Positions 6,001-51,000 of a stretch of 64,000 bases of DNA are shown here, one piece after another. Origin of the DNA: a virus (taxonomy: Duplodnaviria; Heunggongvirae; Uroviricota; Caudoviricetes); the IMG/VR virus record IMGVR_UViG_2529293141_000015, positions 1,630-65,629 of that record. One strand, written 5' to 3'. Position numbers: made by a program. Each line of letters begins with the position of its first letter. The first letter of the stretch is position 1.

Positions 6001-9000
6001 TTCCGTTTTCTCCCCGCGAATCATGGCATCGAAGTATTCACCTTTGACGGCAAGTTGCAGGTTAGCCACGGTTAACCTCCTGCGGCGGTTCTGGTAGCGG
6101 CATCCAGTGAGTTACGTCATCCAAGATATATCCTGATAAATACGTGAAAGCTCTATATTTTTTGTAATCAATTGGATTTACAACCCAGTTCCAATATGCG
6201 GCCACGATTTCACCTTGACTAAATGCCAGTAACATTTTGGTGTCTTCCGGCATTCGATCACTACAGCTTATCCAACCATCCGGAGTTACCGGATGGGGTC
6301 CAGCGAACTCGGGAATGTCAGGACCTTTTCTGATAGCTTTAGCCAGATCCAGCGGGTCATCGTAAAGCCAGTCGCCAGTTTGTGGGTGATTTGCTTCTGC
6401 AAGCTGCGCAGCCCATTCAAGACCATCTTTTTGACCTTGGAGATAATCAAGCGGCAACTCTTCATGCTTACTTGCAGGTTCGGCACAATGCAGCATGGCA
6501 GCGCGGTGACACCAGATAATCCAGCCAAGCGCCATATCCCATGCCATGTATTCTCTATCGCCATTTTTTGCCCTACGGCGATCTACAGATTCCCCGAAAC
6601 GCTTCTCCATAAATAATTCATAGGCTGCTCGTTCATCCGATACTGCTGCCAGTGATGCCAGTGCAATTCGTGCCAGTTCCCTAAGATTTTCGCTATATGG
6701 TGAAGTATTATCACGATTGATTACGTGATTAGCTGTATCTATGAGAACTTGCTTTTGTTCTTCTCTGTTCATAGTGGTCATCTCACTCTCCTTTGATGCG
6801 AATGTTTACAGCCTGGCAAGCTTCTTCGAGTACCCAGTCAACAGCGTCTTTCCACGCACCAGTCCCAACTGACGGATTCTCATTTTTTACCTGCTCATAA
6901 AAACGCACCGCTTTAATCAGTCCTTCAGGTACTACTGGCGATGGCTGTTTAGCTTCTAAATCAGCAATTCTGTCCACCACGGCATCTACTGCATCTGAAA
7001 AACCGAACCAGTTACTCCACTCAGGCCTATCCCCGGTTGCTGCAAAATACATATCAGCTAAAGCAGACTCAGCATGGTCACGCTCGTTAATGAGTTGCTC
7101 TTCGCTTTTCTCCTGTTCGGCTATGCGCTTACTTCCATCCGCGATTACTCCCTCTGAAGTGGTTTACTGAATTTGGCCACCTGAACAGAGGTGATATGCT
7201 CACCTCAGAACAACACAGGTGCCATAATGAAAAAAAGAAATTTCAGCGCAGAGTTTAAACGCGAATCCGCTCAACTGGTCGTTGACCAGAATTACACCGT
7301 GGCAGATGCAGCCAGCGCTATGGATGTCGGCCTTTCCACAATGACGCGATGGGTGAAACAATTACGTGATGAGCGGCAGGGAAAAACACCAAAAGCCTCC
7401 CCCATTACCCCGGAACAAATTGAAATCCGTGAGCTCAGGAAAAAGCTACAACGTATTGAAATGGAAAATGAAATATTAAAAAAGGCTACCGCGCTCTTGA
7501 TGTCAGACTCCCTGAACAGTTCTCGATAATCGGGAAACTCAGGGCGCGTTATCCTGTGGCCACTCTCTGCCATGTGTTCGGGGTCCATCGCAGCAGCTAC
7601 AAATACTGGAAAAACCGTCCTGAAAAGCCAGACGGCAGACGGGCTGTATTACGCAGCCAGGTACTTGAACTGCATGGCATCAGCCACGGCTCTGCCGGAG
7701 CAAGAAGCATCGCCACAATGGCAACCCAGAGAGGCTACCAGATGGGGCGCTGGCTTGCTGGCAGACTCATGAAAGAGCTGGGGCTGGTCAGCTGTCAGCA
7801 GCCGACTTACCGGTATAAACGTGGTGGTCATGAACATGTTGCTATCCCTAACTACCTTGAACGGCAGTTCGCCGTGACCGAGCCAAATCAGGTGTGGTGC
7901 GGTGATGTGACCTATATCTGGACAGGTAAGCGCTGGGCGTACCTCGCCGTTGTTCTCGACCTGTTCGCAAGAAAACCAGTGGGCTGGGCCATGTCGTTCT
8001 CGCCGGACAGCAGGCTTACCATGAAAGCACTGGAAATGGCATGGGAAACCCGTGGTAAGCCCGTCGGGGTGATGTTCCACAGCGATCAAGGCAGTCATTA
8101 TACGAGCAGGCAGTTCCGGCAGTTACTGTGGAGATACCGGATCAGGCAGAGTATGAGTCGGCGTGGAAACTGCTGGGATAACAGCCCAATGGAGCGCTTC
8201 TTCAGGAGTCTGAAGAACGAATGGGTGCCGGCGACGGGCTATGTAAGCTTCAGCGATGCAGCTCACGCAATAACGGACTATATCGTTGGATATTACAGCG
8301 CACTAAGACCGCACGAATATAATGGTGGGTTACCACCAAACGAATCGGAAAATCGATACTGGAAAAAACTCTAACTCGGTGGCCAGTTTTTGTTGACCAC
8401 TTCACTCGTAATACTCACGCTGCTCGTTGAGTTTTGATTTTGCTGCTTCCAACTCATCCAGTAGCGCCAGCACAACCTGAGGTGTGGCTTTCATACGAAA
8501 TGCCAGCAATTTTTGAGGCGTTGCTACTGTTTCAATTGCTACTGCCGCCTCACGCAGTGCCTGGTAATTAATTTCGCTCACTGGTTGCCTCCTTTGCGAA
8601 GCTCAGCGGCGAAAGATGTTGCTGCGGAAGCGATAATTGCATGCCGGTATTCACCATCAGAAAATAAAGAATCTCCCTTAAGTGCATTGACGATACTCTG
8701 ATGATTTTTTGCCAGCATCTCCACGCCCTGCGCCCGTACTTCAGCCAGGCATTTGCGAAACTCGGAAACGTACTGTTCGACGCTCATTCCCCAGCTAAGT
8801 GGACATTCATTGAATGTTTCGCCTTCGTGCTCTTCATCAGGTAGCTCTTTGGTAAAGAACTCACGCTCAATGGCGTGGAGTGTGTCAGCAAAACGACGTA
8901 AGTTACTCAAACCTACCGTAATGGAGAATTCAGGAGCATCACATCCGACGCCCATCTGCTGATAAACTGCTGTTTTGAAGGCCTTCAACTCCGCATTCTC

Positions 9001-48000: not shown

Positions 48001-51000
48001 AAAAAAGCCGGAGCGGATGGAGTGACGGCTGGTATCGGGATTGTCGCCGGAAAAGACAGTGAAGGCAGGCCTGTAAGTCAGGTTGCAATTTCTGCGTCGC
48101 AGTTGTTTGTCTTTGACCCGAACAACCCGGATAACACCGCCTATCCGTTTGCGGTATCAGGTGGCAAGGTTGTGATCCCGAAAGCGATGATTTATGACGC
48201 GGTGATTGAAACACTGGTGTCGCGGAAGGTTGTGGCGGATGAGGTAAAAGCCGGGGTAAGTATCACTTCGCCAGTTATCCGGAGTGCCGTTATTCAGAAC
48301 GGAAACTTTCAGGTTGAGTCCGATGGCAGCATAAAAAGTGGGGAACATTTCAGCGTTTCAGTGAATGGAGATGTGACGGCCAGTAATGCGAAGATCAGTG
48401 GTCATATTGATGCGGATTCCGGCACGCTGAATAACGTGATGATTGAAGAAGACTGCATCATTAAGGGAACAATGAGTGCGGACAGAATCATCGGAGATAT
48501 CGTCAAGGGATATTCCTTCGAACCTCATGATGGCACGCTCCATATTACGAACCACAAGTATGGAGAGGGTTATGTCATCTTTAAGGCGGAGGTATCTCTT
48601 GCTGATGATGTTTCGTTTGATCGCAAGTTGATACTCCTTCCCTTCACTTTCTATTCAGGAACACTGACGATAGAGATTAACGGAAGAGTTGTCATTAAGG
48701 CAGACCCAAGAGTTGCTAATACGGGAACGGCTGGTTATTTTGACAGATACGACAATCCTGTTTACACGCGCACCAACCTCGGGAACACCGTTTCAGGAGT
48801 ATGGGATGTGGCGGCAGGAGGGGGAGATACACGGATTACAGTGACAATGAGAGTTGAAGGTGGTCCTGGCAATATGGGGGATGTGGAAGGGAGAAAGAGA
48901 GAACTGGTGCGATGGAGATATGACGCCTTTACTCTCATGGTGGCGAAATCGACAGATTCCGGTTTTACCCGGATATCGTGACAGGCAGTTGTAATACGGA
49001 TTGCCGGAAGGAGACAAAAACCGTACAGTATGCGCGGGTGCCTTTCGGCTGATGGCTGGAGGGAGAACCTGAAGGCTGAAGTGGTCAACAAAAACTGGCC
49101 ACCGAGTTAGAGTTTTTTCCAGTATCGATTTTCCGATTCGTTTGGTGGTAACCCACCATTATATTCGTGCGGTCTTAGTGCGCTGTAATATCCAACGATA
49201 TAGTCCGTTATTGCGTGAGCTGCATCGCTGAAGCTTACATAGCCCGTCGCCGGCACCCATTCGTTCTTCAGACTCCTGAAGAAGCGCTCCATTGGGCTGT
49301 TATCCCAGCAGTTTCCACGCCGACTCATACTCTGCCTGATCCGGTATCTCCACAGTAACTGCCGGAACTGCCTGCTCGTATAATGACTGCCTTGATCGCT
49401 GTGGAACATCACCCCGACGGGCTTACCACGGGTTTCCCATGCCATTTCCAGTGCTTTCATGGTAAGCCTGCTGTCCGGCGAGAACGACATGGCCCAGCCC
49501 ACTGGTTTTCTTGCGAACAGGTCGAGAACAACGGCGAGGTACGCCCAGCGCTTACCTGTCCAGATATAGGTCACATCACCGCACCACACCTGATTTGGCT
49601 CGGTCACGGCGAACTGCCGTTCAAGGTAGTTAGGGATAGCAACATGTTCATGACCACCACGTTTATACCGGTAAGTCGGCTGCTGACAGCTGACCAGCCC
49701 CAGCTCTTTCATGAGTCTGCCAGCAAGCCAGCGCCCCATCTGGTAGCCTCTCTGGGTTGCCATTGTGGCGATGCTTCTTGCTCCGGCAGAGCCGTGGCTG
49801 ATGCCATGCAGTTCAAGTACCTGGCTGCGTAATACAGCCCGTCTGCCGTCTGGCTTTTCAGGACGGTTTTTCCAGTATTTGTAGCTGCTGCGATGGACCC
49901 CGAACACATGGCAGAGAGTGGCCACAGGATAACGCGCCCTGAGTTTCCCGATTATCGAGAACTGTTCAGGGAGTCTGACATCAAGAGCGCGGTAGCCTTT
50001 TTTAATATTTCATTTTCCATTTCAATACGTTGTAGCTTTTTCCTGAGCTCACGGATTTCAATTTGTTCCGGGGTAATGGGGGAGGCTTTTGGTGTTTTTC
50101 CCTGCCGCTCATCACGTAATTGTTTCACCCATCGCGTCATTGTGGAAAGGCCGACATCCATAGCGCTGGCTGCATCTGCCACGGTGTAATTCTGGTCAAC
50201 GACCAGTTGAGCGGATTCGCGTTTAAACTCTGCGCTGAAATTTCTTTTTTTCATTATGGCACCTGTGTTGTTCTGAGGTGAGCATATCACCTCTGTTCAG
50301 GTGGCCAAATTCAGTAAACCACTTCAGGCCTGATATGGAAAGGCCCCGAGTCAACTTTAACGTTAACCCGAGGCCCTGACCGTACAACCTTCACAAGTAG
50401 TAGGTTAGCGCCTCTCCATTCAGGAGACAAGCGTTATGTCGCAAAAATCGCTCATCACCGTCACAATTTGCATGACGGTTATCTTCACCATCTGGATGTT
50501 GCACGGTTCACTGTGTGAGTTCCGGCTGAATTTGTGGGGAGCGGAGTTTGCGGCGTTCTTACAGTGTAAGCAGTAGGAAAACCGCGACGGGGACGAAAGT
50601 CCCCGTCAACTGGTTGCTGAGGTTCAGCCGATATGGCACCCGTTTGTAGTGTATGTTTTATACAATGCAGGCTGACAGAGAGAGGTAATATTTATCAATG
50701 GTAAATAATAACCACAGAAAATGTTTTGTTTTTTCTGAGTAATACTGGTGTTATTTAGGGTAAGTTTTTGATGCGTATTGCATTCTTGTGATTTTAATCA
50801 TTAATTTTTCTTAACCCATTGATTTTAATATTTTATTTGCCTTGTTATTATGAGTAGTATCCCTGAAGACATTTGCGTTCCGAATGTCAACATATTTATA
50901 ACATGATTTAACATAGGGTGCACATCATGAAAAAGGCAAGCAAGCTGTTGTTGGCTTTAATGCCGGCATTAAGCCTGTCATTATTTTCTGCCGGGGCGTA

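Follow-up and report, generated by a model that had tools for sequence, protein, structure and literature searches.

Two identical, inverted copies of an ISEc52-type insertion sequence in a 933W-type prophage colinear with an insertion-free relative

The 64,000-nt stretch of DNA analyzed here (the window; positions 1,630 to 65,629 of IMG/VR record IMGVR_UViG_2529293141_000015) is almost wholly taken up by a single lambdoid prophage of 933W type (short-tailed Stx phages), and it carries two copies of an insertion sequence (IS) in opposite orientations (Table 1). A repeat search of the whole window found a single long inverted repeat, with arms at 7154-8404 and 49077-50327 that are 1251 nt long and 100% complementary; each arm is one base longer than the 1250-bp element because of a flanking base that matches by chance. 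The copies are separated by 40,672 nt, a script comparison showed that every base is identical over the 1250 bp, and both copies open with TGAAGTGG and close with CCACTTCA. Each copy lies between its own pair of matching triplets, CTC/CTC for copy 1 and GGC/GGC for copy 2, which is the 3-bp (in rare cases 4-bp) target-site duplication of IS3/IS911-like elements; the chance expectation for two such matching pairs is about (1/64)^2. A first-pass annotation of the window had described such a pair, identical and inverted, about 40.7 kb apart and flanked by these two duplications, and had named divergent copies or mismatched duplications as what would speak against it. Its coordinates and spacing are borne out by the repeat search, by direct reading of the ends, and by the base-for-base script, with zero differences between the copies, and its two duplications by reading of the flanks, both pairs being matched. 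The rebuilt empty sites, which are contiguous elsewhere, give independent evidence for the duplications.

Table 1. Coordinates of the two IS copies, their target sites, and reference genes of the prophage within the window
Feature	Coordinates	Strand	Basis
IS copy 1, 1250-bp IS3-family element, ISEc52 type (IS911-like)	7155-8404	+	Ends read directly; script check
IS copy 2, same sequence as copy 1 in opposite orientation	49077-50326	-	orfA 49952-50254; orfAB end at 49107
Target-site duplication 1, left, CTC	7152-7154		Direct reading
Target-site duplication 1, right, CTC	8405-8407		Direct reading
Target-site duplication 2, left, GGC on + strand	49074-49076		Direct reading
Target-site duplication 2, right, GGC on + strand	50327-50329		Direct reading
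Left inverted repeat (IRL) of copy 1, 36-bp terminal inverted repeat, start TGAAGTGG	7155-7190	+	End comparison; 36-bp length from PMC2909936
Right inverted repeat (IRR) of copy 1	8369-8404	+	End comparison
orfA of copy 1, 100 amino acids plus stop	7227-7529	+	Translation; Pfam HTH_Tnp_1 located in the orfA part
Slippery heptamer A AAA AAG (A6G), -1 frameshift site	7478-7484	+	Correct phase relative to orfA
orfAB of copy 1, 382 amino acids, intact, predicted -1 frameshift product	7227-8374	+	Translation without internal stop
Split accessory Ead/Ea22-like open reading frame, C-terminal part	6783-7154	-	Open stretch across rebuilt junction
Split Ead/Ea22-like open reading frame, N-terminal part (approximate start)	8405-8494	-	Open stretch across rebuilt junction
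hok/gef-family toxin gene, 46 amino acids	50436-50576	+	Pfam HOK_GEF, 4e-8, 33.2 bits against a cutoff of 22
Bracketed prophage core, 40,672 bp, ancestral orientation	8405-49076		Colinear with 2012EL-2448; annotation of the relative; Pfam on window proteins
Excisionase (xis) gene	310-609	-	Pfam
cI-like repressor gene	18311-19024	-	
Q antiterminator gene	23812-24345	Rightward	
Tail-tip-fibre gene, intact 589-amino-acid open reading frame	47212-48981		

Removing each IS together with one copy of its duplication rebuilds sites that are contiguous in other Escherichia coli genomes, where the triplet is present once. The rebuilt site 1 (IS and one CTC removed) is found in 2012EL-2448, with 100% identity over 389 nt, and in JNEC-KY175, with 98.3% over 400 nt, and the rebuilt site 2 (IS and one GGC removed) is found over 400 nt in 2015C-3121 and JNEC-KY202 (99.5% and 99.25%, respectively). 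The two 1-kb flanks of site 2 jointly span about 1995 to 2001 bp in six genomes, with 1997 bp in the best match. The closest relative in a complete genome is the IS-free prophage at argW/yfdC of E. coli 2012EL-2448, with which the window is colinear at 83 to 99% identity. All megablast segments between the two prophages fall in the same order and in + orientation, and the alignment is interrupted exactly at 7154 and at 49084/50326. An inversion fixed between the IS copies would be recognized by swapped duplications and by a segment reversed relative to related prophages, and neither was found. Taken together, the matched duplications, the contiguous empty sites, and the colinearity demonstrate two independent simple insertions and exclude a fixed inversion. 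The first-pass annotation had reached the same two conclusions from the duplications, and both are upheld by the empty sites in other E. coli strains and by the shared order and orientation of the window and the 2012EL-2448 prophage.

Intramolecular replicative transposition could, in one step, duplicate an IS in inverted orientation and invert the DNA between the copies, and this would account for two identical inverted copies in one replicon. Such an event would also split the old duplication and leave the new triplet as an inverted repeat, so that the flanks of each copy would no longer match, whereas here they do. It would likewise have inverted a segment that is colinear with the IS-free relative, and IS3-family elements move via a circular copy rather than by cointegration (PMC2909936, PMC11708052). 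The matched duplications and the colinearity refute this one-step origin, and we consider its probability next to nil. Two copies of one IS that bracket DNA also have the formal layout of a composite transposon, a unit that would move, or would already have moved, the prophage core as a whole. Such a unit would be expected to have a single identical target duplication around the whole and unrelated DNA beyond it. The outer flanks of the pair differ, however, with CTC at 7152-7154 and GGC at 50327-50329, which rules out insertion of the unit in one piece; the IRL of each copy faces outward and the IRR inward, and the flanking DNA on both sides belongs to the same prophage in its normal order. 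At 43 kb, the unit would also be far larger than any IS3-family composite known to us, and we attach practically no weight to this possibility.

The element itself has all the parts of an IS911-type member of the IS3 family. At about 1.25 kb it has an IS3/IS911-like length, and its imperfect inverted repeats begin with TG and end with CA. Comparison of IRL with the reverse complement of the right end gave identity over the first 9 bases and 26/40 overall, with the GGCCACC core kept. OrfAB matches the Pfam families rve (1.6e-31), HTH_Tnp_1 (1.4e-14), and rve_3 (3e-11), with the N-terminal helix-turn-helix and the C-terminal DDE (rve) catalytic domain laid out as in IS3/IS911-like transposases. 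For IS911, an OrfA of 100 amino acids, an OrfAB of 382 amino acids, 36-bp inverted repeats, and 3 to 4 bp of flanking DNA at the circle junction have been described (PMC2909936). From the intact reading frames, the intact ends, and the presence of two identical copies, we infer that the IS is probably active at present, and the lack of any difference between the copies would make both insertions recent. Set against the 0.2 to 3% divergence among ISEc52 copies elsewhere, zero differences suggest a recent common source in the same cell, with either one copy giving rise to the other or a third giving rise to both. Repeat collapse or polishing would likewise make 1250 bp perfectly identical, and it could be asked whether one copy was misplaced during assembly or whether consensus polishing of the repeat made the two alike. 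Misassembly would not yield precise ends, clean duplications of 3 bp, and an exact empty-site counterpart for each copy, and the likelihood of such an artefact appears very slight.

These data support a model in which one active ISEc52-type element would have inserted twice, separately and fairly recently, by copy-out-paste-in transposition into a resident stx-negative 933W-type prophage. One insertion would have entered an accessory Ead/Ea22-like open reading frame (ORF) of the leftward early operon, and the other a hok/sok-type leader in the rightward late operon; each would have generated its own 3-bp duplication, and the remaining gene order is ancestral. The pair would then be no functional device but a passive inverted repeat of 1.25 kb, which RecA-dependent recombination might use for inversion. 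We give this reading, with its two separate recent insertions and a passive repeat in an otherwise ancestral prophage, a probability of roughly 0.93. The identity of the copies, their boundaries, the duplications, the empty sites, the colinearity, and the intact coding capacity are established directly. Some points qualify this reading: the identity of the copies could also stem from gene conversion or from an assembler that wrote one consensus for the repeat, inversions that occurred an even number of times would go unnoticed, and both the activity of the IS and its effect on hok are read from sequence. All of these are caveats, and nothing was found that contradicts two independent insertions.

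The name of the element required separate attention. Under the ISfinder convention, isoforms of one IS share roughly 95% nucleotide identity or more. Copies labeled "IS3-like element ISEc52 family transposase" in PGAP annotation of E. coli, Enterobacter, and Raoultella records are 97.2 to 99.8% identical to the element. Many chromosomal copies fall at 99.4 to 99.8%, an unannotated copy on an E. coli plasmid reaches 99.9%, and ISEc52-annotated plasmid copies lie at 97 to 98%. A plasmid copy of Shigella dysenteriae NCTC 9718 annotated as "IS911 family," which served as a proxy for IS911, shows 94.2% identity over 1250 columns. The isoform level (at least about 95%) is accordingly reached for ISEc52, through the PGAP-labeled copies, and missed for IS911, through the S. 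dysenteriae proxy. Two fragments of the K-12 remnant "IS911A" are 98.8% and 95.6% identical to the element, which shows that the names ISEc52 and IS911 are loosely applied. Going by the PGAP labels of near-identical copies, the element is of ISEc52 type, an IS911-like sibling and not IS911 proper. The earlier naming of the two copies as IS911 was right as to the IS911-type anatomy but not as to identity with IS911, given that the IS911-labeled copy falls below the range of the ISEc52-labeled ones.

At site 1, a minus-strand open stretch of 188 codons spans the rebuilt junction; the encoded protein aligns with the C-terminal end of Pfam family Ead_Ea22 (28.2 bits), and in relatives the same ORF is annotated as an N-terminally truncated pseudogene beside a full ead/Ea22-like gene. 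The target of copy 1 was therefore probably an accessory gene in the distal part of the early-left operon that was already defective. Copy 2 follows the tail-tip-fibre gene and ends up 109 nt upstream of the hok start codon. In the uninserted relative 2015C-3121, the Rfam model sok (RF01794) matches positions 2460-2617 with 37.1 bits (E = 1.5e-6), below its gathering score of 59, and the insertion point, at position 2500 of that sequence, falls 40 nt into this 157-nt sub-threshold match; no hok/sok match at the gathering score was found in the window. As judged from this arrangement, copy 2 probably parts hok from the 5' portion of its leader, and probably from its promoter as well. The toxin gene would in that case probably be silent, a loss of expression that we infer from the DNA.

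Each copy runs antisense to its host operon, copy 1 being on the + strand in the leftward early operon and copy 2 on the - strand in the rightward late operon. It is because both are antisense and the two operons diverge that the copies are inverted relative to each other. Two antisense insertions would be expected by chance in 1 of 4 cases, and we draw no conclusion from them. IS911 is known for targeted insertion beside sequences resembling its inverted repeats, and this was considered as an account of target choice; neither target region matched IRL or IRR any better than shuffled controls did, and the idea was rejected.

Recombination between the two copies would invert the bracketed core. 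As the first-pass annotation had stated in general terms for immunity, replication, lysis, and head genes, the bracket includes the cI-like repressor, helicase/primase, Q, lysozyme, portal, capsid, and tail-fibre genes; the core also holds early-left genes, a restriction-modification pair, the rest of the lysis genes, and the terminase gene. That annotation had further expected that an inversion would probably separate early promoters from their operons. The repressor/cro control region and Q, which mark the expected places of the early and late promoters, both lie inside 8405-49076, so these control regions would move together with most of their own operons. What remains of the expectation is that promoter-distal ends would be detached, and what does not is that early promoters would be cut off from most of the genes they serve. 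The early-left operon would lose about 7 kb of accessory genes together with xis (and presumably int beyond the window), and the late operon would lose hok, the YadA-like gene, several small genes, and the gene for a 2806-amino-acid protein. Judging by gene orientations, each detached part would come to lie behind the other operon and be read in the sense direction. Since antitermination is probable for both operons, an inverted isomer would not be obviously dead.

This bears on whether the pair could be a working invertible switch, a flip-flopping segment with both isomers in the population, of which the assembly would show the majority or the ancestral one. Perfect inverted homology of 1.25 kb is ample for RecA-dependent recombination, and the sense placement of each detached operon end behind the other antiterminated operon means that the inverted isomer might be viable. 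The other isomer is without evidence, however; no site-specific recombinase or dedicated crossover site is tied to the pair, and the arrangement is unique to this genome among the genomes and contigs searched, with nothing to suggest that it was selected for. Some low-level inversion is expected of any such repeat and is not in itself a switch. We regard a switch as highly unlikely, and we are equally doubtful of a RecA-driven flip-flop in which the late promoter would come to precede xis (and int) and the early-left promoter the hok, YadA-like, and 2806-amino-acid genes. If such a flip-flop did occur, it would yield a subpopulation of lysogens with altered timing of excision or altered virion composition.

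Both insertions were also sought in other genomes. Queries consisting of the IS with 1 kb of flank on each side were compared with 5,426 complete E. coli genomes; none of these had the IS at site 1 or site 2, and no record covered at least 80% of either query. With no IS at either site, the inverted isomer cannot be present in those genomes. Apart from ATCC 25922-type matches, the best genome matches were empty sites or matches to the IS only. The ATCC 25922-type matches, which cover 51% of the site-1 query, were considered as a shared insertion and rejected: the ISEc52 copy of ATCC 25922 (3976-5145 of the sequence compared) belongs to another prophage, where it lies in the early-left region some 0.7 kb away from an ead/Ea22-like gene other than the one at site 1, and its junction is a different one. 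Among the top-ranked of 225 matching phage records, none had the IS at site 2 and none covered at least 80% of the query, which in this comparison was that for site 2 only. Exact junction patterns gave no match in collections of species-representative genomes and metagenome contigs; recombination inside the IS leaves the IS-flank junctions unchanged, so such short patterns cannot tell the two isomers apart. The absence of both insertions elsewhere fits recent, strain-specific events. In JNEC-KY202, a different IS3-family element (2202-3379 of the sequence compared) occupies the same intergenic region about 380 nt upstream of site 2, and the accessory stretches near both sites seem to tolerate repeated IS insertion.

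The prophage around the two insertions is recognizable as a 933W-type lambdoid phage by cI/Cro-type immunity, Q, a lysis cassette, a P22-like portal, an N4-gp56-type capsid, and a very large distal gene (Pfam searches of window proteins), and its best matches among phage records are Stx1- and Stx2-converting phages. The leftward early region is long and carries two antirepressor modules, homologues of exo, RecT, and gam, and a PstI-type restriction-modification pair. Rightward, the genes run from helicase and primase through Q, an esterase, lysis genes, terminase, the P22-like portal, capsid, and tail fibres to hok, the YadA-like gene, and the 2806-amino-acid gene. No stx genes were found between Q (ending at 24345) and the nanS-p-like esterase gene (starting at 25000), a gap of about 650 bp with no + strand ORF of at least 80 amino acids, and no tRNA genes were found in the same interval (24345-25000). 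Related prophages have tRNA-Ile/Arg/Arg at this spot and Stx phages have stx there; here, the gap contains a match to STnc100 RNA (24683-24896, 198 bits).

Several further features of the prophage were observed. Two modules, each with a C4 antisense RNA followed by an isrK-like RNA (3702-3884 and 15096-15283, both on the - strand), were found, with all of these RNAs scoring above their Rfam gathering scores, and each module lies upstream of an antirepressor-type gene, ORF6N at 2972-3649 and Rha/Ash at 14394-15179. A direct repeat of 300 nt with 78% identity (2950-3249 and 14372-14671) is explained by the presence of these two P1/Gifsy-like antirepressor control units. Genes for a BsuBI/PstI-type restriction endonuclease and an Eco57I-type methylase (15797-18216, - strand) follow immediately after the cI-like repressor gene, with which they share the strand, and the same pair is found in many Stx2 prophages of O157 strains. 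In lambda, the corresponding place is taken by rexAB, and from this position the pair is likely to be expressed in the lysogen as defence cargo. Among the structural genes, a tail-associated ORF of 598 amino acids (40319-42115) contains many collagen-like Gly-X-Y repeats (41042-41874) in nucleotide repeat families of 41 to 47 nt, and this stretch has a local G+C content of 0.61, compared with about 0.50 elsewhere in the window. The tail-tip-fibre gene is intact here, and its counterpart in the closest relatives is an annotated pseudogene without the C terminus. Downstream of IS copy 2 are a gene for a YadA-like trimeric autotransporter with anchor and head-repeat domains (50918-52120) and the intact ORF of 2806 amino acids (55398-63818), whose counterpart in the relative, annotated as a protein with an LPD38 domain, is frameshifted.

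Two insertions of a common and apparently intact IS are ordinary events, and both recombination between inverted IS copies and its detection through duplications are already known (e.g., PMC11708052). Inverted-IS recombination is textbook biology, and the pair described here raises no open question about it. The value of the analysis lies in exact IS boundaries, a corrected IS name, the demonstration of the ancestral order, and the identification of the targets of both insertions. These results can be used in annotating this genome, and because neither insertion occurs in the complete E. coli genomes searched, the insertions can serve as strain markers. They also carry a caution for short-read assembly of this prophage, in which the 1.25-kb inverted repeat may cause breaks or misjoins.

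Among known elements, ISEc52 has the same 1250-bp length and the same two-ORF frameshift organization; nothing notable differs, and the element is an ISEc52 isoform. IS911 of S. dysenteriae, the IS3-family model for copy-out-paste-in transposition, resembles it in length, in its 100-amino-acid OrfA and 382-amino-acid OrfAB, in the A6G motif, in 36-bp TG...CA inverted repeats, in its 3-bp duplication, and in an IRR that is identical across the last 40 bases compared; it differs in overall sequence (the 94.2% identity given above) and at IRL positions 9 to 11, TTT versus CAC. Target duplications have been used to trace IS-linked rearrangements (PMC11708052), and the logic is the same here, with matched duplications indicating simple insertion and swapped ones recombination between copies; the difference is that this prophage has the substrate only, and no rearrangement. 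Chromosomal hok/sok loci of E. coli K-12 have been inactivated by insertion sequences, as the work of Pedersen and Gerdes (1999) is cited in PMC2654758, and copy 2 likewise sits within a hok-family locus. Compared with the K-12 loci as that citation presents them, the locus here belongs to a prophage late region, the IS is in the upstream leader, and inactivation is a prediction. A parallel in a phage is the IS911 of Shigella phage Sf6, which disrupts an accessory gene in the nin region and has a direction of transcription opposite to that of the phage genes around it (PMC5630979). In both cases an IS of the same group has struck an accessory gene of a lambdoid temperate phage (P22-like in Sf6) in antisense to the host genes, but Sf6 has one copy, whereas the 933W-type prophage described here carries two, in inverted orientation.

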